Shown: piece after piece, positions 18,119 through 63,146 of the stretch
How the letters are laid out: each line of letters begins with the position of its first letter
How positions within the stretch are numbered: position 1 is the first letter of the stretch
DNA from: Fidelibacterota bacterium
GTDB taxonomy: Bacteria; Fidelibacterota; UBA2242; B5-G15
DNA: 64,000 nt
Direction of reading: 5' to 3'
NCBI GenBank assembly: GCA_017656425.1
Contig: JACDNV010000007.1
Span: 67,821-131,820, forward strand
Made by a program: the position numbers and the translations under genes
The notes under the pieces: generated by a model
The model's database searches: none
What the model was told of the DNA's origin: nothing
What the model saw: only the letters and a program-made list of their open reading frames with translations

Positions 18119-18497
18119 AAAAATTCCTTTATATTTTTAAATTAATTATAGTTTGAATTTGGATCAAAATCTTAAAAGAAAGAGAGAAAAAGCCATTGAT
18201 CAAAATTTAAAGAAAGTATTTAATGAGCAGATAAAGCTTGAATTTGAATCTGCGTATATTTATTTGTCGATGGCGACATATTTCCATAATGTTGGATTGG
18301 ATGGTATGGCAAAATGGCTGCGTATGCAGGCTAAGGAAGAAGTAGAGCATGCCATGAAATTTTTTGATCATTTAATTGATAGGGATGAAAAAGTAGATTT
18401 AATGCGGGTAAATATCGAAAAAGTAAACTGGGCAAGCCCTCTTGAAGCATTTAAGGATGCCTATGAACATGAGAGGTTTGTTACAGGGAAGTTAATC

Positions 18498-18532
18498 GCA
18501 ATGTCCAAATGCAGAATGCAGAATGCAAATTG
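18498..18532 (+). repeat. left inverted-repeat arm, built from AATGCAG/AATGCAG/AATGCAA heptamers
   Basis: By hand alignment it pairs with 18903-18937 at about 28 Watson-Crick pairs plus 1 G-U out of 35 positions. It contains the ATG (18523-18525) of the enclosed ORF. Confidence 0.7.
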
Positions 18533-18897
18533 AAAAATGTCAAAATAGAAGCGATTTATCAGAAAGGCTATTAGAGTTCGCAGCAAGTAGCACTAAATTG
18601 ACAGTTAGACTTAAAAGAACTGCTGTAGTACAGTACATAGCAAATCAGCTAATGCGAGCTGCTTCGTCTTCTGGGGCAAATTATGAAGAGGCATGTGGAG
18701 CAGAAAGTAGAGCCGATTTTATAGATAAGATGCAACTCGTCTTGAAGGAATTACGAGAGTCTTTATATTGGCTGAAACTGGTGGAGAGAAGCGACTTAAT
18801 TTCTGGCAATGAGCTACAACCATTATTGGCTGAATCAAACGAATTGATCAAAATTGTTGCAAAATCGGTAATCACTGCGAAAGGAAGGGGAGAATGA
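18523..18897 (+). CDS. four-helix-bundle protein (23S rRNA intervening-sequence protein / Avd-like family)
   Basis: 124 aa. The pattern ERLLEFA....KL...L.RT.....IANQLMRAASSSGANYEEACGAESRADFIDKMQLVLKELRESLYWLKL matches the conserved core I recall for TIGR02436/PF05635 (..QL.RS..S..AN..EA.....S..DFI.K.....KEL.ET..WL.L). Confidence 0.8.
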   Translation: MQIEKCQNRSDLSERLLEFAASSTKLTVRLKRTAVVQYIANQLMRAASSSGANYEEACGAESRADFIDKMQLVLKELRESLYWLKLVERSDLISGNELQPLLAESNELIKIVAKSVITAKGRGE

Positions 18898-18899
18898 CT

Positions 18900-18937
18900 T
18901 TGCAATTTGCATATTGCAATCTTCATTTTGCAATTGC
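18900..18937 (+). repeat. right inverted-repeat arm, five 7-nt units (TTGCAAT TTGCATA TTGCAAT CTTCATT TTGCAAT)
   Basis: It is the reverse complement of the left arm with about 7 mismatches. It begins 3-6 nt after the TGA (18895-18897) of the enclosed ORF. Confidence 0.7.
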
Positions 18938-19212
18938 CGTAAGGCTATCTTGCCCTTCGGGAAATCGCCTTCGGCGACTTCGTGAATACAAGACGATAAA
19001 TGACCTGATGAAGCTTGCAATACAAGTTGAGGATTATCCTGCCAGGGTATTACTATACTGGTTTGTAACTGAGCAAGTTGAAGAAGAAGATCAGACTTCA
19101 AAGATTGTTGGGTTATTAGGAAGAATAGGGGGTTCACAGCAAATATCGATTATGCTGGATACTCAACTTGTAAAAAGAGAAGATTGATTGAAGTTATAGA
19201 AAGGAATAAAAA

Positions 19213-19683
19213 ATGGAAAGAATAAGTCTTGAAGAGGTATTTAAAATTGCGATTGAAATAGAAAGAAATGGTCAGAGATTTTATCGTAATTATGCGGAAA
19301 AAAATGATGATGAAAAAATAAAAGAAGTTTTTAATAATCTTGCTGATATGGAAAGTGATCATGAAAGAGCTTTTATTGAGATGAAAAATAGACTTGTTAC
19401 AGATTATGATAGAATTGAAGCAGATACAGAGGGATTATTGAATGCCTATATAAAAGCCTTTGCCGGTGGTTATATTTTCACTTCAGATGATAAAATAGTT
19501 GAGGCTGGAAGCCCTGATGATATTCTAAAATATGCAATAGGTAAGGAGAAAGATTCCATATCATATTATCTTGCTGTAAAGGAGTTTGTTGTTGGGGAAG
19601 ATAATAAAGATAAGGTTGATAGAATTATAAAAGAGGAAATGAAACATATCATAATTTTATCTGACCTGATCGCTTCATATTAG
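19213..19683 (+). CDS. rubrerythrin/ferritin-like di-iron protein (no rubredoxin domain)
   Basis: Two ExxH-type motifs (LADMESDHERAF and IKEEMKHI) lie in a four-helix layout; the protein begins EEVFKIAIEIERNGQRFY. Confidence 0.7.
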   Translation: MERISLEEVFKIAIEIERNGQRFYRNYAEKNDDEKIKEVFNNLADMESDHERAFIEMKNRLVTDYDRIEADTEGLLNAYIKAFAGGYIFTSDDKIVEAGSPDDILKYAIGKEKDSISYYLAVKEFVVGEDNKDKVDRIIKEEMKHIIILSDLIASY

Positions 19684-35128: not shown

Positions 35129-35584
35129 ATGATATATGATGAATTGGAAGTAAAGAGAATTGTAAATAATGTGGTCGAGAAAAATAATTGTTATTTACTC
35201 GATGTTATTATAAATCAGAGAGGTAGTAAATTATTTATTAAGGTAGTAGCAGACAATATGAAAGGTATTGATTTAAATACATTAACTTCAATAACGAATG
35301 AATTGAGAGATAGTCATGAATTTAATGAAGTAGTTCATCTGGATTATGAACTTGAGGTTACCTCACCGGGTGTGGATTGGCCATTAAGAGAGTATCGTGA
35401 TTTTTACAAGCATATTGGCAGGGAAATTGAAATTTTTCATAATTTGCCTGATTGTAAATCTCCAGAATTGGGTAAGTTAGTTGATGTGGATATCGATGGT
35501 ATTATTGTTGAGACAAAGGGTGGTGAAAACAAAAAATATTTATATAGTGAAATAGATCATGGTAGAGTTAAATTAAGGTGGTAA
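35129..35584 (+). CDS. rimP: ribosome maturation factor RimP
   Basis: Its position immediately upstream of nusA is conserved synteny. It has an LEVTSPGVDWPL motif and is about 150 aa. Confidence 0.85.
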   Translation: MIYDELEVKRIVNNVVEKNNCYLLDVIINQRGSKLFIKVVADNMKGIDLNTLTSITNELRDSHEFNEVVHLDYELEVTSPGVDWPLREYRDFYKHIGREIEIFHNLPDCKSPELGKLVDVDIDGIIVETKGGENKKYLYSEIDHGRVKLRW

Positions 35585-35599
35585 AAAAGGGGGATAAAA

Positions 35600-36994
35600 T
35601 TGATAGATAAAGAAGTTATTGAACAGTTAATTAGGGAAAAAAATATAGATAAGAATTTACTATCTGAGATAATCCAGAAGATTTTTATAAATTTGATAGA
35701 ACGGAAATATGGTGATGCTTCAAACTTTGATGTTATTGTTAACATGGATAAAGGCGAGATTGAAATATATCATCAAAAATCTATTGTGGATAAGGTTACT
35801 GATGAGGTAAATGAGATTGATATAAAGGAGGCCAAAAAAGTTGAGCCGGATCTGGATATAGGAGATACATATATTGAAATAGTTAATCCAGAAAGCTTTG
35901 GCAGGAGGCTTATAAATTTAGCAAAGCAGAGATTAATACAGGAAATAGTCAAAGTAGAAAAACATACTATTTTTGAAGAGTATAAGAAAAAGATAGGTCA
36001 AATCGTTTCCGGTGATATAAGGCAGATAAAGAGAGATGCGGTATATATCTATATTGGGAAAGCGGAGCTAAAGCTACCACGAGAGGAGCAAATACCTGGT
36101 GAGAGGTATAGACGAGGTCGTGAGATAAGGGTTTTAATTAAAGACGCAGTAATGGGGAAAGCAGGACCAGAAATAATAGCGTCAAGATCCGATCCACAGT
36201 TTTTAATAAAATTGTTTGAAAATGAAGTTCCTGAAATAGCCGATGGGACAGTGGAGATTGTTGCTGTAGCAAGGCATCCAGGTGATAGAAGTAAAGTTGT
36301 AGTAAAGTCAAATAATAAAAGAGTTGATGCTGTCGGAGCCTGCGTAGGTATAAAGGGTAGTCGAATTCAGGCTATAGTGCGAGAATTAAACAACGAAAAA
36401 ATTGATATAATAAATTATAGTACCGAGCCGGAGGTTCTGATAACAAGAGCTTTATCCCCTGCGAGACCTTATGTATTGGAGATTGATGAGGAAAAGAAAA
36501 CAGCCCTGGCAGTTTTTGAGGACGAAGAGATACCTGTTGCAATCGGTAAGAATGGTCAGAATATAAAACTGGCATCGGAAGTTACTGGATATAATATTGA
36601 TGCGATTAAAAGGAGTGAATATGAGCTAACAACAAGTGAGATAATATATCTTGAAGATATTGAAAATCTGAGTGAACATGCATGGAAGCTTCTTTATAGT
36701 GTGGGTATTGAAACTGCGGATGAGTTTTTAGATACACCACGGGAAGAATTATTGAAAATAAATGGTATAGGCGAAAAAACGCTTGAAAAAATAACTGCTA
36801 TTATTCAGGAAGCAGTTGAGAAAAGAAAGAAAGAATTAGAGGAAGCAAGAAAGAAAGCTGAAGAGGGTGTTGTTTCATCAGAAGAAGCCACCGCCATGGA
36901 GGAAGAGGCAGAAAAAGAAAAAGAATTCGAATTCAGTGAAGAAGAGATTAAGAAATATCTTGATGACTATCAGAAAGATAGTGATAATAAGTGA
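35600..36994 (+). CDS. nusA: transcription termination/antitermination factor NusA
   Basis: TTG start. S1-like and two KH domains (GACVGIKGSRIQAIVRELNNEKIDII, AIGKNGQNIKLASEVTGYNIDA), a C-terminal HhH region and an acidic tail. Confidence 0.95.
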   Translation: MIDKEVIEQLIREKNIDKNLLSEIIQKIFINLIERKYGDASNFDVIVNMDKGEIEIYHQKSIVDKVTDEVNEIDIKEAKKVEPDLDIGDTYIEIVNPESFGRRLINLAKQRLIQEIVKVEKHTIFEEYKKKIGQIVSGDIRQIKRDAVYIYIGKAELKLPREEQIPGERYRRGREIRVLIKDAVMGKAGPEIIASRSDPQFLIKLFENEVPEIADGTVEIVAVARHPGDRSKVVVKSNNKRVDAVGACVGIKGSRIQAIVRELNNEKIDIINYSTEPEVLITRALSPARPYVLEIDEEKKTALAVFEDEEIPVAIGKNGQNIKLASEVTGYNIDAIKRSEYELTTSEIIYLEDIENLSEHAWKLLYSVGIETADEFLDTPREELLKINGIGEKTLEKITAIIQEAVEKRKKELEEARKKAEEGVVSSEEATAMEEEAEKEKEFEFSEEEIKKYLDDYQKDSDNK

Positions 36995-37017
36995 TTAAAT
37001 AAGGAAAGTTAAGGATA

Positions 37018-39588
37018 ATGGCAAAAAAGAGAAGAGTATACGAGGTAGCAAAGGAATTAAACATATCTCATAAAGAGATAATGGATTATCTTGAGTCTAT
37101 AGGGGTAGAATGCCAGTCTCATATGTCTCCCATAGATGATGATACGTATTTTAAAATTTTGAAGAGGTTTGCTAAGGAGAAGTCACTGGTTGAGGAGTTA
37201 GAAAAAGAACGGGAACGTAAAGAGGCAGAAATAAAACGAAAAATTGAGGAGGAGCTCAGGAAACAGGCTGAGAGGGAGAGAGAACAGATTGAAAAAGAAG
37301 TTTTTGAGATGGCATTACCAATATTTAACAATGCTATAATTGATGTTTATGCAGTAGGAGAAAACGTAACAAAAGCTCTTGTATCCGAGGTAATAGAGGA
37401 ACAGGAACGTTTTGAAGTTATCCCAGAGAAAGAGAAGGGAGAAATTGAGGAAGAATTTAAGGAGATTTTGAAATCAAAATTTAAGAGGGTGAAAGAAAGA
37501 GAGGAACTTGAACAAGAAGGAAGTGAAATTATAAATATAGATTTAGATAAAGAAAAGATCAGATTAAGGAAAGAAAAACAAAAGAAGAAAGAAAAAAAGA
37601 CAATCAGAAGGATAATTACGCGCGAAGAGTTAGAAGAAAAGCTGGGGCTTCACGGGAAGGATTTTGAAGAGGAAACACGAATAAAGGGTGGTCGAAAAAG
37701 AAAACGTGAAGAGATAGATGAAAAGAAGGTTGAGGATCTGATCCGACGTACAAAAGCTAAAATGGTTTCAAAGAGTACAAAGAAGAAATACAGGAAGCAG
37801 ACAGAAGAGGGTGAAATAGTAGAAGAGAAAGAGAAAATTAAAGTAATGGAGTTTACTACTGTGGAGAATCTTGCGAATCTTATGGATGTTGAGCCCAGTG
37901 ATGTCATTCAGAAATGTATAGAAATGGGATTATTTGTAACTATTAATCAACGACTTGATTTTGAAACTATATCCCTAATAGCGGATGAATTTGGATATGA
38001 AGTTGAACAGGCTACAGAATACGACGAGGAAATTTTTAAAATTGAGGATACTGAAGAAGATAAGAAGAAAGCAACTCCAAGACCACCTGTAGTTGTTGTA
38101 ATGGGTCATGTTGATCATGGTAAAACCTCATTACTTGATTACATTAGGCGTTCAAATGTTGTAGCTGGAGAAGCGGGTGGTATTACACAACACATAGGTG
38201 CATACGAGGTAGAAATTGATAATAACAAAAAAATAACTTTCATAGATACGCCGGGTCATGAGGCATTTACAGAAATGAGGGCAAGAGGGGCCCAGGTAAC
38301 TGATATAGTTGTCCTTGTGGTTGCCGCCGATGATGGAGTAATGCCTCAGACAATTGAAGCTATAAACCATGCTAAGGCAGCAAATGTACCGATAGTTGTT
38401 GCTATAAATAAGATTGATAAGCCTAATGCCGATCCAGAGAGAGTAAAGAGGGAATTGTCAGAGCACGGGGTACTTGTTGAGGATTGGGGTGGTAATGTGC
38501 AGTGTGCTGAAATTTCGGCAAAAACGGGTAAGGGAATAGATGAACTACTTGAAAAAATACTACTTGAAGCTGAATTATTGGATTTGAAAGCAAATGCGAA
38601 TACTTTAGCAAGAGGGACAGTAATTGAAGCAAAACTTGATAGAAGACATGGTCCAGTAGCAACTATACTTATTCGTAAAGGTACTTTGCGAATAGGTGAG
38701 CCTTTTGTATGTGGTGCAACTTCAGGTAAGGTGAGACTCTTACTCGATGAGAGGGGAAATAGAAAAACAGATGCAAAACCATCAGATCCCGTTCAGGTAG
38801 TCGGATTTGATAGCCTGCCTCAGGCTGCGGACATTTTCGCTGTTGTAAATGATGAAAAAGAAGCAAGAAGAATAGCTTTTGAAAGACAGAGAGTTCTCAG
38901 AGAGCAGCAGCTGCGTAAGGCAACTGAATTAACCCTTGATAAACTTTCGCAGAAGATAGCTGAAGGAGAAGTAAAGCAATTGCCAGTTATAGTAAAGGCA
39001 GATGTGGATGGATCTCTTGAAGCTGTATGTCAGTCTCTACAGGATCTTGGCAATGAGGAGGTTAGTGTGAATATTATTCATAGAGCTGTAGGTCAAGTTT
39101 CAGATAATGATATCCTTCTGGCAAAGGCATCCCAGGCTATTATAATCACATTTAATTTAAGTCCAACAGCAAGAATAAGGGACCTCGCGAAACGTGAAAA
39201 TGTTGAAATCCGCTCTTATAATGTTATATATGAAATGATAGATGATGTAAAAGCTGCCCTTGGAGGAATGCTGAAGCCAGAGAAAGTGGAAGAGTCCCTT
39301 GGCGTAGTGGAAGTGAGACAGATATTTAAAGTACCAAAAGTAGGTTTGGTGGCTGGATGCTATGTAACCAGTGGGAAAGTCGTTAGAAATGCTCATGCCA
39401 GAATTAAGAGAAACGGGGAAGTAATATTTGACGGTTTTATTGAATCTTTGAAACGATTCAAAGATGATGTAAGAGAAGTTCATGAAGGGTTTGAATGCGG
39501 TATATCTCTCGCTGGATTTGACGACTATAAAGAAGGTGATGAAATTGAAGTTTATGATGTTAAATCGGTGAAAAGAACTTTAGAATAG
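37018..39588 (+). CDS. infB: translation initiation factor IF-2
   Basis: K/E-rich N-terminal region, then the G domain GHVDHGKTSLLD, DTPGHEAF, NKID, and C-terminal IF-2 domains. Confidence 0.97.
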   Translation: MAKKRRVYEVAKELNISHKEIMDYLESIGVECQSHMSPIDDDTYFKILKRFAKEKSLVEELEKERERKEAEIKRKIEEELRKQAEREREQIEKEVFEMALPIFNNAIIDVYAVGENVTKALVSEVIEEQERFEVIPEKEKGEIEEEFKEILKSKFKRVKEREELEQEGSEIINIDLDKEKIRLRKEKQKKKEKKTIRRIITREELEEKLGLHGKDFEEETRIKGGRKRKREEIDEKKVEDLIRRTKAKMVSKSTKKKYRKQTEEGEIVEEKEKIKVMEFTTVENLANLMDVEPSDVIQKCIEMGLFVTINQRLDFETISLIADEFGYEVEQATEYDEEIFKIEDTEEDKKKATPRPPVVVVMGHVDHGKTSLLDYIRRSNVVAGEAGGITQHIGAYEVEIDNNKKITFIDTPGHEAFTEMRARGAQVTDIVVLVVAADDGVMPQTIEAINHAKAANVPIVVAINKIDKPNADPERVKRELSEHGVLVEDWGGNVQCAEISAKTGKGIDELLEKILLEAELLDLKANANTLARGTVIEAKLDRRHGPVATILIRKGTLRIGEPFVCGATSGKVRLLLDERGNRKTDAKPSDPVQVVGFDSLPQAADIFAVVNDEKEARRIAFERQRVLREQQLRKATELTLDKLSQKIAEGEVKQLPVIVKADVDGSLEAVCQSLQDLGNEEVSVNIIHRAVGQVSDNDILLAKASQAIIITFNLSPTARIRDLAKRENVEIRSYNVIYEMIDDVKAALGGMLKPEKVEESLGVVEVRQIFKVPKVGLVAGCYVTSGKVVRNAHARIKRNGEVIFDGFIESLKRFKDDVREVHEGFECGISLAGFDDYKEGDEIEVYDVKSVKRTLE

Positions 39589-39591
39589 GAT

Positions 39592-39873
39592 ATGACGATT
39601 GGATATTTGCAGCTTGATCTATATTTACCGGGAGTAAATTCTATAAAGCATAAGAGATCTGTAGTGAGTAGTATAAAAAATAGGTTGAGGAACAAATATA
39701 ATATTGCCATAGCAGAAATGAATGCAAACAGTCACTGGAGTAGAGTAAGCCTTGGAATCACCACGCTAAGTGATAGTTATAATATTGTCAATAATATATT
39801 AAATGATGTTGAACGTTATATAGAAGCAAATTTTGAAGTTTCTATTATTAACAGAAACATAGAGTTTTTATAA
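39592..39873 (+). CDS. DUF503 (YlxP-like) protein
   Basis: 93 aa. It begins L.L.LYLPGVNSIKHKRSVV..IKNRLRNKYN.A.AE, and lies between infB and rbfA as in many bacteria. Confidence 0.8.
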   Translation: MTIGYLQLDLYLPGVNSIKHKRSVVSSIKNRLRNKYNIAIAEMNANSHWSRVSLGITTLSDSYNIVNNILNDVERYIEANFEVSIINRNIEFL

Positions 39874-39874
39874 T

Positions 39875-40243
39875 ATGTCATTTTCGAGGGTAAAAAGAGT
39901 TTCTGACGAATTACAGAAGATATTAAGTGAGATTATTGTTGTTGATGATCCATTTGATTTGGGTACGATGGTAACAATATCAAAGGTTGAACTATCCAAA
40001 GATTTTAAACAGGCAAAGGTGTATATCAGCATATATGACGAGAATTCTGCTAAAAGGGACGAAGTTATTAACAAGTTACGTGAAAAAGCAGGTAAGATAA
40101 GGTATGAACTCGGTAGAAAAGTGAGATTAAAATATATACCTAGGTTAATATTTTATGAAGATGAAACATTGCAATATGTTGAGCGGATTGAGAATATAAT
40201 TAAGGAGCTAAAATATTCGGACAATGAAGATGGAAATGAATAA
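39875..40243 (+). CDS. rbfA: ribosome-binding factor A
   Basis: RVKRVSDELQKILSEII N-terminus, VTISKVELSKDFKQAKVY, and conserved synteny. Confidence 0.92.
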   Translation: MSFSRVKRVSDELQKILSEIIVVDDPFDLGTMVTISKVELSKDFKQAKVYISIYDENSAKRDEVINKLREKAGKIRYELGRKVRLKYIPRLIFYEDETLQYVERIENIIKELKYSDNEDGNE

Positions 40244-40907
40244 CACAATATTGAATATATATAAACCAGTTGGTATCACATCTTTCGATGTTGTTAGAAT
40301 TATACGCAGAGCTACTGGCATAAAGAAGGTAGGACATGGTGGTACGCTGGATCCCTTTGCCGAGGGTGTTCTCTTGATAATGACCGGAAATAAGACAAAG
40401 AAAATGCAGGAAATTCTAATGTATAATAAAGTTTATGAAGCTATTTTAAAATTAGGTCAATCCACCGAAACAGGTGATCCAACGGGAAGAATAATTGGTA
40501 GATGTGATATTCCAGAAATTGAGGTTAATTTGTTGGAGGAAGTACAGAAAAAATTTACTGGTAAGATTTTGCAAGAACCCCCAATTTATTCTGCAAAAAA
40601 AATTAATGGTATTCCAGCCTATAAATATGCTAGAAGGGGAGAAAAGATAAAGCTCGAAACTAAGGAAGTAAACATTTTAGATTTATCCCTACGGAAGATT
40701 AGTCATGATAAAATTAGTATATACGTTGAATGTGGATCTGGAACCTATATAAGAAAACTTGGTGAGGATATTGCTAGGGAGCTTGGTACATGTGGTTATC
40801 TCGTCAATCTAAAAAGGTTACGAGTGGGACCTTATAAAATAGAAGATTCAATAAAAATAGATAGATTTTTAAAATTAATAGAGGTTGATACTAAAAAGAG
40901 AGTTTAA
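40224..40907 (+). CDS. truB: tRNA pseudouridine(55) synthase
   Basis: NIYKPVGITSFDVV, catalytic GHGGTLDPFAEG, and PPIYSAKKING. The start may be an internal Met (40230 or 40236). Confidence 0.93.
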   Translation: MKMEMNNTILNIYKPVGITSFDVVRIIRRATGIKKVGHGGTLDPFAEGVLLIMTGNKTKKMQEILMYNKVYEAILKLGQSTETGDPTGRIIGRCDIPEIEVNLLEEVQKKFTGKILQEPPIYSAKKINGIPAYKYARRGEKIKLETKEVNILDLSLRKISHDKISIYVECGSGTYIRKLGEDIARELGTCGYLVNLKRLRVGPYKIEDSIKIDRFLKLIEVDTKKRV

Positions 40908-40908
40908 A

Positions 40909-41883
40909 ATGCAGGTATTCTTTGGACTGAACACATTTCCAAAACATTATGCAAGCTCTGTTGCTACAATTGGTGTGTTTGATGGTCTGCATAGAGCACA
41001 TATGGAAATTATAAGAAATGTAGTTCAAAGAGCGAAAGAGTTAAATACTCATCCGATATTGATTAACTTTGAGCCTCATCCCAAAGTTATAAAAGGGGAA
41101 ATGGAATCTATAGGCGGAATATTGACTTCACCTAAGGAAAAAATGAAAATTCTGAAAAATTCTGGATTGGAGGCTATACTGTTTTTAAATACCGACAGAG
41201 AATTACTCGACATTGCCCCTGAGGACTTTGTAAAAACCATACTAGTGGGGCACATAAGAGTTAAGGAATTAATAGTTGGTTTTGATTACAGGTTTGGGAA
41301 AGATAGAAGCGGCGATATCTATGATTTAAAGAAATTCGGGAAAAAATTTGGGTTTAATGTTAATATAATTAATCCTATAAAGGATAGCAATTTTATGATT
41401 AAGTCTTCCAGAATAAGAGAACATTTACTTAAAGGAAATATAAAAGAGGCGAACAGATTACTCGGAAGGTATTACGGGATAACTGGTTTTGTGGTAAGAG
41501 GTGAAGGTAGGGGAAGAGAGTTAGGATATCCAACTGCCAATCTGCGGCTAACATATAAACATAAACTTGTTCCTAAATCAGGTACGTACCTGACTTTATC
41601 TCACTTTAAGGGATTTTATAGGTATGGTTTATGCAATATAGGTTATAGACCTACTTTTGAAGGGACAGAGCTTTCTATAGAGGTGTATATTTTCGAGCCC
41701 ATAGAAGGTGAATTGTACGGAACAGAGATGGAGGTATTTTTCATTGAAAGAATGAGGGATGAGAAAAAATTCAGCTCTGTTGAGGAATTGAAAAAACAAA
41801 TAGAAAAAGATAGGATGGAGGGTCTAAAATTAATTGAATCCATAAAGGAAGAAAGGGAGGTGGAGTTAGATGTCATTAACTAA
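40909..41883 (+). CDS. ribF: bifunctional riboflavin kinase / FAD synthetase
   Basis: IGVFDGLHRAH (FMN adenylyltransferase) and GRELGYPTANL plus EVFFIERMRDEKKF (riboflavin kinase). The ATG at 40909 directly follows the truB stop. Confidence 0.93.
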   Translation: MQVFFGLNTFPKHYASSVATIGVFDGLHRAHMEIIRNVVQRAKELNTHPILINFEPHPKVIKGEMESIGGILTSPKEKMKILKNSGLEAILFLNTDRELLDIAPEDFVKTILVGHIRVKELIVGFDYRFGKDRSGDIYDLKKFGKKFGFNVNIINPIKDSNFMIKSSRIREHLLKGNIKEANRLLGRYYGITGFVVRGEGRGRELGYPTANLRLTYKHKLVPKSGTYLTLSHFKGFYRYGLCNIGYRPTFEGTELSIEVYIFEPIEGELYGTEMEVFFIERMRDEKKFSSVEELKKQIEKDRMEGLKLIESIKEEREVELDVIN

Positions 41884-42139
41884 GGAAGTGAAAAGAGAAT
41901 TAGTTGAGAAATTTGGTAGTAATCCCTCGGATACAGGAAGAACGGAAGTACAGATTGCAATTCTAACGAAGCGAATACAGAGACTAACGGAGCATTTTAA
42001 AAAGAATAAGAAAGATTTTGGTTCTATTAGGGGGTTGTATAAGCTGGTTGGTAGAAGAAAAAGGCTATTGGAATATCTTAAGAGGAAGGATATTAAAAGA
42101 TATGAAAATATAGTAAATGAATTAAATCTTAGGAAATAA
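41870..42139 (+). CDS. rpsO: 30S ribosomal protein S15
   Basis: 89 aa. It has G.....DTGRTEVQIAILT.RI..LTEHFK..KKD..S.RGL..LVG.R..LL.YL, with GGAGG upstream. Confidence 0.97.
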   Translation: MSLTKEVKRELVEKFGSNPSDTGRTEVQIAILTKRIQRLTEHFKKNKKDFGSIRGLYKLVGRRKRLLEYLKRKDIKRYENIVNELNLRK

Positions 42140-42148
42140 GGAGGAATC

Positions 42149-44326
42149 TTGTTGATTCAAAAGAAAACAATATTTTCTGGGAGGGAGTTGATTTTAGAGT
42201 CTGGCAGAATGGCAAAACAGGCAAACGGGTCTGTTGTTGTAAGATATGGAGACACGATGGTTCTTATTACCGCCACATCAAATTTTTTTAGCAGTCCGAA
42301 TCAGGATTTTTTCCCATTACAAGTTGATTATATTGATAAAGCCTATGCTGCTGGTCGCATACCCGGTGGTTTTTTTAAAAGGGAAGGTAAACCTTCAGAA
42401 AAGGAGATATTAAGTGCCAGGTTGATAGATAGATCAATTAGACCGTTATTCCCCGATGGTTTTTTATCTGAAACTCAAATAATTGTTAATGTAATATCAA
42501 GTGATCAAAAAAACCCTGGAGATATACTTGGGATTCTTGGAGCCTCTGCTGCATTATCAATATCTAACATTCCTTTTAATGGTCCAATAGCCGGTGTAAG
42601 AGTTGGACGCATAGACAATCGATTTGTTTTGAATCCTACACTTCAGGAGCTGGAGCAGAGTCAGATGGATATTGTTGTAGCAGGGAGTGAAAATTCAGTC
42701 ATAATGGTAGAAGGCGAAGCAAAGGAAATTCCTGAGGATATATTCATATCTGCTATTGAATTTGCCCAAGAAGGAATAAGGGAATTAATTAGATTTCAAA
42801 ATGAATTTAGTAATTCCTTTAACGTTGATAAATATTCTTTTGAACCCAGAGTACCATCAGAAGAGTTTGTAAATCTGGTAACTGAGAAGGTGTTACCTCA
42901 TTTAAATGAATGGAGAGAGAAAGCAAAAATATCTAAAAAATTAAGATCGGATAGTATAAATCAATTTATAGCTAAACTTACAGATGAACTCGCTGATCAG
43001 TTCCCTGAGGATGTAGTATTTGTTCAAACTATTGTTGAAGATATTGTGAAAAAAGATATGCGAAAACTGATTTCTGAGAAGACGATTAGACTTGACGGAA
43101 GGGGACTAAGTGACATTCGACCGATTACATGTGAGGTAGGTGTTTTACCAAGAGCTCACGGATCAAGCCTTTTTACCAGAGGAGAGACTCAAAGTCTATG
43201 TAGTGTGACTCTTGGGACGAAATTTGATGAGCAAATAATTGATGATATAGATAAAGAAATTGCTACAAAAAGGTATATGCTACATTACAATTTTCCTCCT
43301 TTCTGTGTTGGTGAAGTCAGACCCTTAAGAGGTCCTGCAAGAAGGGAAATAGGACATGGGAATCTTGCTGAAAGGGCATTGAAATTCCAGATACCTTCTG
43401 AGGAAGAGTTTCCATACACAATCAGAGTTGTATCTGACATACTGGAATCCAATGGAAGCTCATCTATGGCTACGGTGTGTGCTGGTTCTATGGCATTAAT
43501 GGATGCGGGTGTACCCATTAAGAAGACAGTGGCTGGTATCGCAATGGGGCTTGTGAAAGAAAATGATGAATATTTCATTCTTTCTGATATAATAGGTGCT
43601 GAGGATCATTATGGTGATATGGATTTTAAGGTTGCTGGCACAAGGGAAGGAATTACTGCTATACAGATGGACTTAAAAATTGAAGGAATATCTCATGATA
43701 TTATGAAAAAAATTCTTCATCAGGCCAAGATAGGAAGATTGAGTATAATTGATATAATGGAGCAGACAATAAGTGCTCCAAGAAGTTCAATTTCTCCTTA
43801 TGCACCGAAAATTACTACTCTAAAAATAGATACAACATTAATTGGAGAGGCAATTGGACCTGGTGGTAAAAACGTTAAACATATTTTTTCGACTACGGGA
43901 GCAACAATTGAAATTGCCGATGATGGGACTGCGTTTATAAGTGGACCGACAATGGAAGCTATTGAACAAGCAAAGAAAATGTTATCCGAATCTGTAGTAA
44001 AACCTGTAGAAGGAGAAAAATATAAGGGAGTGGTGAAAAGAATAGAAAAATATGGCGCTTTTGTAGAGTTTTTGCCAGGCAAAGAAGGGTTATTACACAT
44101 TTCTGAAATTGACCATAAGAGGATACCTGATATAAGTAAAATTTTAAAAGTAGGTGACGTAATTGAGGTTAAGTTAAAGAAGATAAATGGTCTGGGTAGA
44201 TATGAATTGACAAGGAAGGAACTTATACCAGCGCCGGATAACCACCATCCTATGGGAAAGAGATTTCCTCATTCAGAGAATAGAAGAAAATTTAATTCCG
44301 ACAAAAAAAGATTTCATAGAGAATAG
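42149..44326 (+). CDS. pnp: polyribonucleotide nucleotidyltransferase (PNPase)
   Basis: TTG start after AAGGAGG. Two RNase PH domains (RPLFP, SDILESNGSSSMATVC), then KH (IGPGGKNVK) and S1 (G.V..I..YGAFVEF.PGKEGLLHISE). Confidence 0.97.
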   Translation: MLIQKKTIFSGRELILESGRMAKQANGSVVVRYGDTMVLITATSNFFSSPNQDFFPLQVDYIDKAYAAGRIPGGFFKREGKPSEKEILSARLIDRSIRPLFPDGFLSETQIIVNVISSDQKNPGDILGILGASAALSISNIPFNGPIAGVRVGRIDNRFVLNPTLQELEQSQMDIVVAGSENSVIMVEGEAKEIPEDIFISAIEFAQEGIRELIRFQNEFSNSFNVDKYSFEPRVPSEEFVNLVTEKVLPHLNEWREKAKISKKLRSDSINQFIAKLTDELADQFPEDVVFVQTIVEDIVKKDMRKLISEKTIRLDGRGLSDIRPITCEVGVLPRAHGSSLFTRGETQSLCSVTLGTKFDEQIIDDIDKEIATKRYMLHYNFPPFCVGEVRPLRGPARREIGHGNLAERALKFQIPSEEEFPYTIRVVSDILESNGSSSMATVCAGSMALMDAGVPIKKTVAGIAMGLVKENDEYFILSDIIGAEDHYGDMDFKVAGTREGITAIQMDLKIEGISHDIMKKILHQAKIGRLSIIDIMEQTISAPRSSISPYAPKITTLKIDTTLIGEAIGPGGKNVKHIFSTTGATIEIADDGTAFISGPTMEAIEQAKKMLSESVVKPVEGEKYKGVVKRIEKYGAFVEFLPGKEGLLHISEIDHKRIPDISKILKVGDVIEVKLKKINGLGRYELTRKELIPAPDNHHPMGKRFPHSENRRKFNSDKKRFHRE

Positions 44327-61261: not shown

Positions 61262-61684
61262 ATGGAACATTTAAAATATAAATTAATTAATCATTCGTCG
61301 GATATTGGAATTAATGTATTTGGTAAAAGTTTGGCAGAACTATTTGAAAACGGAGGTTATGCTCTTTTTGATTTGATAACAGATATAACGGATGTGGACC
61401 CAAAAATAGATCGTGAGATGAGAATTAAAGCAGAACAGATAGATCTATTGTTTCACGATTGGCTTAGTGAATTATTATTTTTATTTTATGCAGAAAATAT
61501 GCTCTTTAAGCAATTTAAATTTAAGAAGCTTGATTACCATAGCCTCGAAAGTGTGATAAGTGGAGAGGTCTTTGACCCAATGAGGCATATTGTTAAGAGA
61601 GAGATAAAAAGCGTTACTTATCATAAACTTGAGGTTAAAAGGGTAGGTGGATTGTGGAGGTCCACTGTAATATTTGACGTATAA
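61262..61684 (+). CDS. archease
   Basis: 140 aa. H.SDIGI.VFG.SL.ELFENGGYALFDL, and a C-terminal KSVTYHKLEV....G.W...VIFDV. It is directly upstream of rtcB. Confidence 0.85.
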   Translation: MEHLKYKLINHSSDIGINVFGKSLAELFENGGYALFDLITDITDVDPKIDREMRIKAEQIDLLFHDWLSELLFLFYAENMLFKQFKFKKLDYHSLESVISGEVFDPMRHIVKREIKSVTYHKLEVKRVGGLWRSTVIFDV

Positions 61685-61700
61685 TTTTAGGGGACTAATA

Positions 61701-63146
61701 ATGGAAAACAGAGATTTAAAAAAGATAAATGAATTTACATGGGAAATCCCAAAAGAAGCTGGTATGCATGTGCCGGGCAGGATTTATGCCAGCGAGAAGC
61801 TATTGAAGCAAATTTTGAAGGATGAAAGCATAAAACAAGTAAAAAATGTTGCCTATTTACCAGGGATAGTTGGATATTCAATGGCAATGCCAGATATTCA
61901 TTGGGGATATGGGTTCCCTATTGGAGGTGTCGCAGCTACGGATGTAAACAATGGGGTAATTTCACCGGGAGGTGTAGGATATGATATTAATTGTGGTGTT
62001 CGTCTAATAAGGACTAATCTGGAATATAGTGATATTCAGGATAAAATTGAACATATTATAAGTGATTTATTTAGCGCTATACCAACTGGAGTAGGTTCAC
62101 ATGGAGCCATAAAAAAACTGTCGAAGCAGGAGGTGAGGAAAGTACTTTTGGAAGGGGCTGAATGGGCGGTTAAAAATGGCTATGGTAAATCTGAGGATTT
62201 AAAATTTATAGAGGAAAAGGGTAAGATCCATGATGCCGATCCAGATGTTGTTTCCAATAAAGCATATGAAAGAGGAGCTCCTCAGCTCGGGACACTTGGT
62301 TCAGGTAATCATTTCGTAGAGCTATCTGTAGTGGCTGATATTTATGACAGTAAATCCGCAAATATTTTGGGTTTGTGGAAAGATCAGGTAGTGTTTTTAA
62401 TCCATACTGGTTCGAGAGGCTTAGGATACCAAATTTGTGATGATTATTTAAGAGTTACAATTAATGCAGTAAGAAAATATGGAATAAATATCCCAGATCG
62501 TCAGCTTGCTTGTGCTCCTATCCAATCAAAAGAAGGACAGGATTATCTCTCAGCAATGAGGGCAGCTGCCAATTTTGCTTTTTCCAACAGGCAGGTTATA
62601 TCATCACTTATAGAAAACCAATTATTAAAAAGTCTAAATATATCTCCTGTTGATCTAGGGTTTCAATTAATATGGGATATTGCGCATAATATAGCAAAAA
62701 TAGAAGAACATGAATGGAAGGGAAAGAATGTAAAAGTTTGTGTGCATCGGAAAGGAGCAACTCGTGCATTTGGTCCTAATTCACCTGATTTGCCTGATAT
62801 TTATAAGTCTATAGGTCAGCCTGTTTTGGTTCCCGGAGATATGGGTACTGAGTCCTATATCTGTGTCGGAACACAACGAGCAATGGAGGAAACATTTGGT
62901 AGCTCATGTCACGGTGCTGGTCGAGTGCTATCACGAAGGCAGGCAAAGATTGAAAGCGGTAAAGTTGATTTGAATAATGAATTGAAAAAATATGGAATTT
63001 ACGTTCTGGCAGATTCTCGTGGTACTATAGCGGAAGAAATGCCACATGCCTATAAGGATGTAGGTGAAGTAGTTGACACGATGCATAAGACCGGGATTAT
63101 TAAGAAGGTAGCACGCTTGAGACCATTAGGTGTAATAAAAGGATAG
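61701..63146 (+). CDS. rtcB: RtcB family RNA 3'-phosphate/5'-OH ligase
   Basis: MPDIHWGYGFPIGGVAA, GVGYDINCGVR, GSGNHF.E, HTGSRGLG and CHGAGR motifs. The ATG at 61701 lies just after the archease stop. Confidence 0.95.
   Translation: MENRDLKKINEFTWEIPKEAGMHVPGRIYASEKLLKQILKDESIKQVKNVAYLPGIVGYSMAMPDIHWGYGFPIGGVAATDVNNGVISPGGVGYDINCGVRLIRTNLEYSDIQDKIEHIISDLFSAIPTGVGSHGAIKKLSKQEVRKVLLEGAEWAVKNGYGKSEDLKFIEEKGKIHDADPDVVSNKAYERGAPQLGTLGSGNHFVELSVVADIYDSKSANILGLWKDQVVFLIHTGSRGLGYQICDDYLRVTINAVRKYGINIPDRQLACAPIQSKEGQDYLSAMRAAANFAFSNRQVISSLIENQLLKSLNISPVDLGFQLIWDIAHNIAKIEEHEWKGKNVKVCVHRKGATRAFGPNSPDLPDIYKSIGQPVLVPGDMGTESYICVGTQRAMEETFGSSCHGAGRVLSRRQAKIESGKVDLNNELKKYGIYVLADSRGTIAEEMPHAYKDVGEVVDTMHKTGIIKKVARLRPLGVIKG

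Follow-up and report, generated by a model that had tools for sequence, protein, structure and literature searches.

A ferritin gene split by a 504-nt insert

The locus described here lies in a stretch of 64,000 nucleotides, referred to below as the window, from an uncultured marine bacterium of the Fidelibacterota (GenBank assembly GCA_017656425.1, contig JACDNV010000007.1, positions 67,821 to 131,820 of the forward strand). In this window a ferritin gene is divided into two parts by an insert of 504 nt, which contains a gene for a four-helix-bundle protein enclosed by inverted arms of heptad repeats, followed by a tail that resembles part of the attC recombination site of integron cassettes. 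Comparison of the insert with its relatives elsewhere establishes, at the level of sequence, its anatomy, the rule obeyed by its junctions, multiple independent insertion sites and horizontal spread, and makes it probable that the insert is an integron-type gene cassette, i.e. a promoterless gene with an attC-like site, that entered ferritin at a secondary (attG) site.

The open reading frame (ORF) 18153-18533 on the + strand matches positions 4-99 of the Pfam Ferritin profile and, after the lysine codon that ends the ferritin sequence, continues for 13 unrelated codons (LIAMSKCRMQNAN) to a TGA. The ferritin frame picks up again at 18996 with INDLMKLAIQVEDYPARVLLYWFVTEQVEEE..., and from there ORF 18894-19187 matches profile positions 97-141. 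When the halves are joined, they form a protein of 176 aa that scores 128.6 bits on PF00210 in one stretch (profile positions 4-141) and 89.6 bits on the non-heme ferritin model NF007638, and that is 54-67% identical to full-length ferritins of 162-183 aa. The unsplit orthologs P0122 (67% identity), P0123, P0126 and P0160 read F(I/V)TGK-IN(D/E)L(M/V)KLA straight across the junction, with zero residues gained or lost. The insert, at 18492-18995, separates ferritin codons 113 and 114, and its position is ambiguous by 1 nt (a G). No ferritin nucleotide has been lost, and the conserved motifs of both halves are intact as judged by eye against the orthologs. A preliminary description of this DNA had claimed that the breakpoints are precise and that no target duplication accompanies the insert; both statements hold, the sequence being GTTA on the left and GATA on the right. 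The 5' junction is also present in an independent assembly, L086 (JGI 3300033150), which is 99.15% identical to the window over 4612 nt and encodes the same truncated ferritin (P0121). The L086 contig stops within the insert, such that the 5' junction is seen twice and the 3' junction only in the window, where it obeys the same rule as the other insertions of the cassette (see below).

The 124-aa product of the inserted gene exceeds the cut-offs of both TIGR02436 (77.1 bits, cut-off 24) and PF05635 (55.1 bits, cut-off 33.8), as the earlier assignment to this family had led one to expect, and it matches PDB 2RLD with E = 1.9e-14. Across the cassette gene family, the ratio of non-synonymous to synonymous substitution rates (dN/dS) is 0.05-0.36, which indicates that the gene is under purifying selection throughout the family; the window copy has derived changes at conserved residues. 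The two arms, detected by repeat search, each comprise 39 nt, are 79% complementary and enclose the ORF. The left arm places stop codons in all three frames of incoming translation, among them the TGA that terminates the frame of the ferritin N-terminal fragment. In the tail of 58 nt, which ends with CGTGAATACAAGACG, lie three small hairpins that are rich in G+C and have loops of the GTAA and TTCG types; no intrinsic terminator was predicted in this tail. Within the window the insert sequence is present as a single copy only. The coordinates of these features are compiled in Table 1, together with the sites at which sister copies of the cassette were found.

Table 1 The split ferritin locus in window coordinates, and the sites occupied by sister copies (the arrow marks the junction between host and cassette)
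Feature	Position	Strand	Description or basis
Ferritin 5' part	18153..18491	+	codons 1-113, helices A to mid-C, ends ...AYEHERFVTGK (K = 18489-18491)
Left junction G↓TTAATC	18491..18497	+	host G and 6-nt R' remainder (GTTRRRY-like); conserved cassette start in at least 10 contexts
5' inverted arm, AATGCAR heptads	18498..18536	+	conserved in relatives; holds the cassette start codon and TGA 18531-18533
Cassette gene, 124-aa four-helix-bundle protein (TIGR02436/PF05635, '23S rRNA intervening sequence protein' family)	18523..18897	+	hidden Markov model, PDB
Shine-Dalgarno-like GGAAGGGGAG and ATG overlapping the cassette stop (ATGA 18894-18897)	18881..18896	+	read from sequence
97-aa ORF	18894..19187	+	34-residue leader through 3' arm and tail, in frame with ferritin codons 114-176
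3' inverted arm, TTTGCAW heptads	18899..18937	+	repeat search
Window-specific replacement TGCCGTAAGGCTAT	18935..18948	+	small GCC-GTAA-GGC hairpin; comparison with L087, L001, L089, L090
3' half of attC-like site	18949..18995	+	two C(UUCG)G-type hairpins (18953-18961, 18965-18977); L' CGTGAATAC (18981-18989); spacer AAGAC; terminal G 18995
Right junction G↓ATA	18995..18998	+	GWT-type target triplet
Ferritin 3' part	18996..19187	+	codons 114-176 and stop; tblastn of joined protein
Ferritin site without insert (predicted empty site)			GGGAAGATAAAT
Cassette in L001-5, L007, L092-94			rbfA-truB junction
Cassette in L087			after codon 2 of ATP-sulfurylase-like gene (sat): ATG TC↓cassette↓G ATA CCA AAA CCA CAT GGA GGA
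Cassette in L160, L115			middle of SNase-domain (nuclease) gene; joined protein is a single Pfam SNase stretch over the junction
Cassette in L100			start of DUF488 gene
Cassette in L006/L091			start of uvrD-type helicase gene
Cassette in L095/96			between ABC ATPase gene and permease gene
Cassette in L088, L089, L090			intergenic DNA

Sister copies and the ends of the cassette

The same cassette, with 76-92% DNA identity, occurs at no fewer than 10 other places in bacterial metagenomes and metagenome-assembled genomes (MAGs). DNA comparison revealed that the whole unit, including the tail, recurs with identical ends in unrelated contexts, which bears out the earlier view that a mobile cassette interrupts ferritin. 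The insertion into a coding gene is not the one-off that it had appeared to be: sister copies split a gene of the SNase family and sit in the first codons of other genes. The window itself contains the operon rimP-nusA-infB-DUF503-rbfA-truB-ribF-rpsO-pnp (35129-44326), in which the junction of rbfA (39875-40243) and truB (40224-40907), at about 40224-40243, is unoccupied and represents the empty counterpart of the site that is filled in L001-5, L007 and L092-94. Between the window and L001 the housekeeping DNA of this operon is 67-72% identical, whereas the cassette is 91% and the tail 96% identical, a contrast that provides direct evidence that the cassette moves horizontally.

Proteins 80-98% identical to the ORF product are encoded in Marinimicrobia MAGs and many metagenomes; those that are 65-83% identical come from MAGs labelled Dehalococcoidales, Chloroflexota, Sedimentisphaerales, Methanophagales, Thermoplasmatales, Nitrosotalea and others. 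The archaeal MAGs among them include one homolog in a clearly archaeal context. In archaeal L170 (6540-7130; also L171-L175), with genes for FtsZ, Spt5-NGN, Alba and archaeosine TGT nearby, a homolog with 67% identity lies between hisI and alba. Like this homolog, the family genes on contigs of the WOR-3/Stahlbacteria type (L054 958-1323; L064 2980-3354; L161 2435-2896) are more distant members; they are located between the gene of an XerC-like recombinase and hslV, in the order topA-xerC-hslV.

Wherever it occurs, the cassette follows immediately upon a host G and opens with TTAAGC, with TTAATC in the window or with TTAGGC in L160. It ends with ...ATACAAGACG (...AAGACG↓ in the window). The right flank provides G↓AT in the window, L087, L160/L115 and L100, and G↓TT in L088/89, L138, L028 and L134/135; exceptions are G↓CT in L090 and A↓AT in L001, where the terminal G is replaced by A. 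G↓AT or G↓TT is found at about 10 of 12 junctions. None of the copies is accompanied by a target duplication, and the left and right sequences differ in most insertions.

The full-length tails of the relatives, about 84 nt in total, consist of R'' (GCCTAAC), AAA, L'' (GTATTCACG), about 43 nt with two hairpins, L' (CGTGAATAC), AAGAC and G. Their 3' half is 94-98% identical among L087-L090 and is attached at the same point in all contexts; the corresponding part of the window matches L001-5 and L007 with 96% identity over 50 nt. R'' has the form RYYYAAC and is followed by a short unpaired spacer, and the 9 bp between L'' and L' contain no mismatch. In a circularised cassette, the G of the tail would be followed by TTAAGC, which gives R' the form GTTRRRY. 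R'' is complementary in 7 of 7 positions to the left end of L160, GTTAGGC, and in 6 of 7 to GTTAAGC. When the L001 site is reconstituted, its bottom strand folds as DNA into an R box, a loop, an L box and a terminal structure.

A second subfamily (L138, L028, L134 and L135), whose protein is about 62% identical, has the arrangement GTATAAC-AGC-GTGTTTGCGA-...-TCGCAAACAC-ACAAACC-G, with ends G↓TTATAC and AACCG↓ or GAACG↓, and all its right flanks are G↓TT. Its left end GTTATAC is complementary in 7 of 7 positions to its own R'' GTATAAC. For the reconstituted site, the bottom strand yields -19.2 kcal/mol (z = -4.1) and the top strand -12.5 kcal/mol (z = -1.8). The R-box pair differs on both sides between the subfamilies while AAC/GTT remains constant, which represents a compensatory change. 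In a control with swapped flanks, 15 loci passed for R''/R' complementarity versus 3-9 in 20 permutations. The features examined for membership among attC sites were the cassette boundaries, R''/R', L''/L' with the spacer, a length of about 57-141 nt and a single-strand hairpin; the full-length relatives display the attC boundary, the R''/R' pairing, and L''/L' with the hairpin fold. The aadA1 attC sequence was verified.

In L089, a second attC-like palindrome, GCGTATAAC...GGGAAC↓GTTATGCG, follows the neighboring gene pair, and ..AC↓GTTA.. junctions are repeated, which looks like part of a small array. The sequence upstream of the L134 copy also has the look of an attC but does not fold as one and was rejected.

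Another property of the cassette is the reading frame that leads out of it. The Shine-Dalgarno (SD) sequence and the ATG are kept in the sister copies as AAAGGAGGGGGAAAATGA, and the frame that starts there contains no stops through the arm and the tail. In the window it is in phase with ferritin, in L087 with sat and in L001 with truB, the start of which is placed by the gene caller inside the cassette. In L100 the tail frame is in phase with DUF488, with an ATG from an arm-like piece inside the tail; in L160 it would be in phase but for the truncated tail; and in L006 the ATG of the arm replaces the uvrD start codon. The phase ...NN G↓AT N... is common to all gene-internal insertions. The read-through frame may stem from selection for such insertions or from the cassette itself, and in either case would keep ribosomes on the interrupted gene and avoid polarity downstream. 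Translation through attC sites is reported to aid the expression of downstream cassettes. An in-phase restart through the recombination site would be a way in which a mobile cassette might lessen polarity.

Origin of the insert

In the explanation that we consider the most probable, the folded attC site of the cassette would have recombined site-specifically with a secondary attG triplet, G↓AT, in ferritin codons 113/114, and the reaction would have been performed by an integron integrase supplied in trans. Crossing over immediately after the G accounts for a precise insertion free of duplications, the invariant left end G↓TTRRRY and the right end ...G↓. The cargo would be an IVS-type module (IVS, intervening sequence), i.e. 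the TIGR02436/PF05635 gene inside the inverted heptad-repeat arms. A later deletion of the R''/L'' half, with 14 nt in its place, would have fixed the cassette, and the split ferritin gene would yield an N-terminal fragment of 126 aa and possibly a C-terminal fragment of 97 aa restarted at the SD sequence and ATG.

These steps have precedents. At secondary sites, integron integrases need no more than GNT or GWT, and they cut behind the G, G↓AT included. Cassettes integrate genome-wide at attG sites and thereby disrupt genes, and folded attC sites are readily deleted afterwards. Solitary cassettes at secondary sites ('SALIN'), such as the aadB cassette in RSF1010/pIE723 and the genome-wide attC x attG insertions studied by Loot et al., share with the present element a promoterless gene with an imperfect palindrome, RYYYAAC/GTTRRRY ends, the G↓TT crossover, a GWT/GNT target without duplication, gene disruption and later decay of attC. 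The cassettes described here differ from them in their uncultured Neomarinimicrobiota host, the lack of an integrase in view, the heptad-armed IVS-type cargo, the many solitary copies across phyla with archaeal homologs, and the SD sequence and ATG, from which a reading frame crosses the recombination site and enters the host gene. The preliminary description had left room for an unrecognised type of mobile cassette; that proposal gives way to the integron cassette at an attG site, to which the G↓TTRRRY...G↓AT ends, the attC-like palindrome of the relatives and the GWT target all conform. Integrons with cassette arrays are also known in Archaea, where they mediate gene transfer across domains. 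Archaeal integrons fit the occurrence of close homologs in archaeal MAGs, though archaeal L170 shows no attC-like tail.

Several observations weigh against the assignment to integron cassettes. Arms of heptad repeats are not normally found in cassettes. In the window copy the R''/L'' half is missing and the site is reduced to its variable structure, L', spacer and final G; the classification of this copy therefore rests on the relatives. In these, extrahelical bases were not demonstrated: the folds give an asymmetric internal loop (3 vs 5 nt or 4 vs 0 nt) with no clear extrahelical G/T in the L box. The attC assignment was made by rules and covariation rather than with the IntegronFinder covariance model, and crude rule-based scans for attC were not enriched over controls (20 vs 16 matches in all loci, 12 vs 5-16 downstream of family members), so that documentation of the attC-like tail is confined to two subfamilies. 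With few exceptions the copies stand alone and do not form arrays, and the majority of loci contain just one. A tblastn search with IntI1 yielded nothing in the window, in agreement with the earlier statement that it contains no integrase, and only XerC-type genes in the fetched loci, in topA-xerC-[cassette]-hslV operons. No tyrosine recombinase was found among the scanned ORFs of the window, in a scan that was not aimed at transposase or reverse transcriptase. Three proteins that are 95-98% identical to the window protein, MBO8130913.1, MBO8131379.1 and MBO8131555.1, have close accession numbers and are encoded on contigs of 187, 147 and 77 kb. They probably represent three copies in one Neomarinimicrobiota MAG, which suggests proliferation within a genome. 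Finally, the arms of L170 are followed by a 15-bp hairpin without an attC-like tail, and a cyanobacterial relative, Anabaena L169, likewise has arms without a recognisable attC.

Much of this evidence also speaks for the strongest competitor of the integron cassette, a non-autonomous mobile element of another or undescribed class whose ends only resemble integron sites. Such an element could be a hairpin element of the IS200/IS605 type, moved by a Y1 transposase in trans, or a dedicated transposon of the IVS module. The solitary copies, apparently several of them in one MAG, the occurrence of the arms-plus-gene module without an attC-like tail in the wider family and the failure to find intI in the window or the fetched loci would be in line with it. 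The same applies to the lack of duplications in combination with subterminal hairpins and, when the bottom strand is read, to the location of the element 3' of TATC/TAAC-like tetranucleotides. On the other hand, the G↓TT crossover, the RYYYAAC/GTTRRRY pair with its compensatory change, the distances between R box, spacer and L box, and the choice of GWT as target are all specific to recombination between integron attC and secondary sites, and no transposase was seen among the ORFs beside the copies examined. We consider an element of another class unlikely. Miniature elements of the MITE/PATE type are comparable in that they are small, rich in hairpins, lack a transposase of their own and have ORF-less mini-derivatives (as in L011 and L091); they differ from the cassette in that the latter has a conserved gene under purifying selection, no inverted repeats at its true ends, no duplication and integron-core-like ends.

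Still less probable is that the insert is tolerated, either because it is removed from the RNA in the manner of an IVS or intron, perhaps through the RtcB and archease encoded in the window, or because the translated fragments assemble. The ferritin sequence is complete with its motifs intact by eye, the arms can pair like the stems of 23S rRNA IVSs, and the restart frame is in phase with the C-terminal part of ferritin. The genes of archease (61262-61684) and the RtcB RNA ligase (61674-63146) indeed form a pair for RNA repair and ligation, yet nothing ties this pair to the ferritin transcript. For the removal at the RNA level that the preliminary description had envisaged, no support was found. 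No Rfam family, including group I and group II introns and small ribozymes, matched the insert (18300-19250) at E up to 10. Rfam searches of L001, L006, L008 and L011 returned nothing at E up to 0.1 except one tRNA elsewhere in L006. A hammerhead ribozyme, considered on account of CUGAUGA/GAAA, was dropped because the order of the elements did not fit. When 18462-19025 is folded, the arms pair, yet shuffled sequences fold equally well (z = -0.5), and neither an intron-like nor a bulge-helix-bulge feature is evident. Excision of an IVS by RNase III leaves the RNA unligated. The site of the cut and the substitutions in the N-terminal part of ferritin, presented in the following section, also argue against a tolerated insert.

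An assembly chimera, in which a repeated element had been mis-joined to ferritin reads, is scarcely credible: the cassette does recur in metagenomes and probably exists in several copies in related genomes, and its 3' junction is known from one assembly only, but the identical 5' junction in the independent assembly L086 makes a chimera unlikely, both junctions conform to the rule stated above and leave the ferritin frame precisely restored, and the window copy has private features (the truncated tail and derived substitutions) that are absent from other copies.

The cargo of the integron-type cassette relates the element to the IVSs with ORF in 23S rRNA genes, such as those of Leptospira and of Coxiella burnetii (S23p). 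They have in common the PF05635/TIGR02436 protein, terminal inverted repeats of 28-39 nt around the ORF (the stem of the Coxiella IVS comprises 28 bp), a size of about 430-500 nt and a sporadic distribution through horizontal transfer. The present insert differs in that it interrupts an mRNA gene, where excision by RNase III would not restore function, and has an attC-like tail outside the arms. No 23S rRNA segments were found in the window or in the fetched loci searched, and the window contains no rRNA, Rfam giving only 4 tRNAs. As no rRNA is involved, the insert is not an rRNA IVS. The preliminary description placed the protein in an 'IVS/Avd-type' four-helix-bundle family, to which the Avd accessory protein of diversity-generating retroelements (DGRs) belongs, and PF05635 is mentioned in a review of DGRs. 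The cassette gene is not adjoined by a reverse transcriptase gene and therefore does not count as the accessory gene of a DGR, a judgement that involved no search for template or variable repeats. It is doubtful, though conceivable, that the IVS module is a specialised selfish cargo of integron-type cassettes that spreads through bacterial genes and operons by solitary insertions, has close relatives in Archaea and brings a restart of its own that limits harm to the host, and that the ORF-bearing IVSs of 23S rRNA are the same cassettes at GNT sites in rRNA helices. In the literature searched, the coverage of which was incomplete, no description was found of the TIGR02436/PF05635 family as cassette cargo or of such cassettes in coding genes.

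If the insert is an integron-type cassette, it would represent a natural off-target insertion that disrupts chromosomal genes of uncultured environmental bacteria. Insertion at attG sites has so far been characterised mainly in laboratory assays and on a few resistance plasmids. A further consequence would be a link between the '23S rRNA intervening sequence protein' family and mobility of the cassette type. These proteins are annotated in thousands of genomes and have no known role. For annotation, the proposed mobility would account for family genes that are wedged in conserved operons (infB-rbfA-truB, xerC-hslV, cas1-cas2) and for neighbors with odd N-terminal extensions or fragment calls.

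Fate of the cassette and of ferritin, and further observations

In the window copy, the 14 nt of TGCCGTAAGGCTAT take the place of about 57 nt that hold R'' (GCCTAAC) and L'' in the full-length copies. Since the R and L boxes cannot form in the window site, the cassette would no longer be excisable and is probably fixed. Similar decay is seen elsewhere: tails are shortened between two GTATTCAC repeats (L008, L011, L105 and L112) or almost wholly lost (L160 and L115).

By comparison with E. coli FtnA, the cut falls halfway along helix C, and the ferroxidase center draws on residues of both halves. A working ferritin is therefore unlikely, and the gene has most likely become a pseudogene only recently. 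Between the window and L086, the N-terminal part of ferritin has 5 differences in 339 nt (1.5%), 3 of them non-synonymous and 2 synonymous, compared with 22 differences in 3594 nt (0.6%), 8 of them non-synonymous, in the neighboring gene of a type IX secretion system (T9SS) protein. This is suggestive of relaxed constraint on the N-terminal part, with counts too small for significance. The cassette gene (18571-18768) differs from that of L086 in 9 of 198 nt (4.5%), though the strains are 99.15% identical overall. The cassette genes of both have derived non-synonymous changes, and 4 of the 5 changes derived in L086 are A-to-G within 34 nt. Gene conversion by paralogous copies or directed mutagenesis is a possible cause of this divergence.

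The ferritin halves are flanked by the T9SS protein gene and by rubrerythrin and flavin-reductase genes. Close downstream of ferritin and on the same strand are rubrerythrin-like, flavin-reductase/rubredoxin fusion, sufC and sufBD-type genes. No second ferritin is encoded elsewhere within the window.

In viral contigs the tail had 0 matches. An exact-sequence look-up of the window protein and of P0002-P0004 retrieved no contigs on record. The plasmid collection contained only distant cyanobacterial homologs (31-46% identity), none of which, among those examined, lies in a recognisable integron. On plasmid pANACY.01 of Anabaena cylindrica (NC_019772.1; L169, 1290-2080), a gene of the family occupies the space between cas2 and cas1, on the strand opposite to theirs, and is flanked by inverted runs of GTAAAAA heptads. 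Its location may explain the reported association of the family with CRISPR loci, and heptad-repeat arms appear to be a family trait in which the sequence of the heptad varies.

Mini copies that consist of arms only, without ORF, are nested beside full copies (L011 3350-3470; L091 2975-3100; L141 2470-2505; L100 205-250; L001 3388-3462), and in the same regions unrelated tiny hairpin sequences are found inside the arms or between arm and tail. In L135 (350-520), the end of an ISL3-like transposase gene abuts and truncates the 5' part of the subfamily-2 cassette. L088 and L089 have the cassette and the 3' flank in common and differ in their 5' flanks, with the end of a HicB-like gene in L088 and a palindrome with a 19-bp stem in L089, a pattern that would be expected of cassette shuffling or of recombination between copies.

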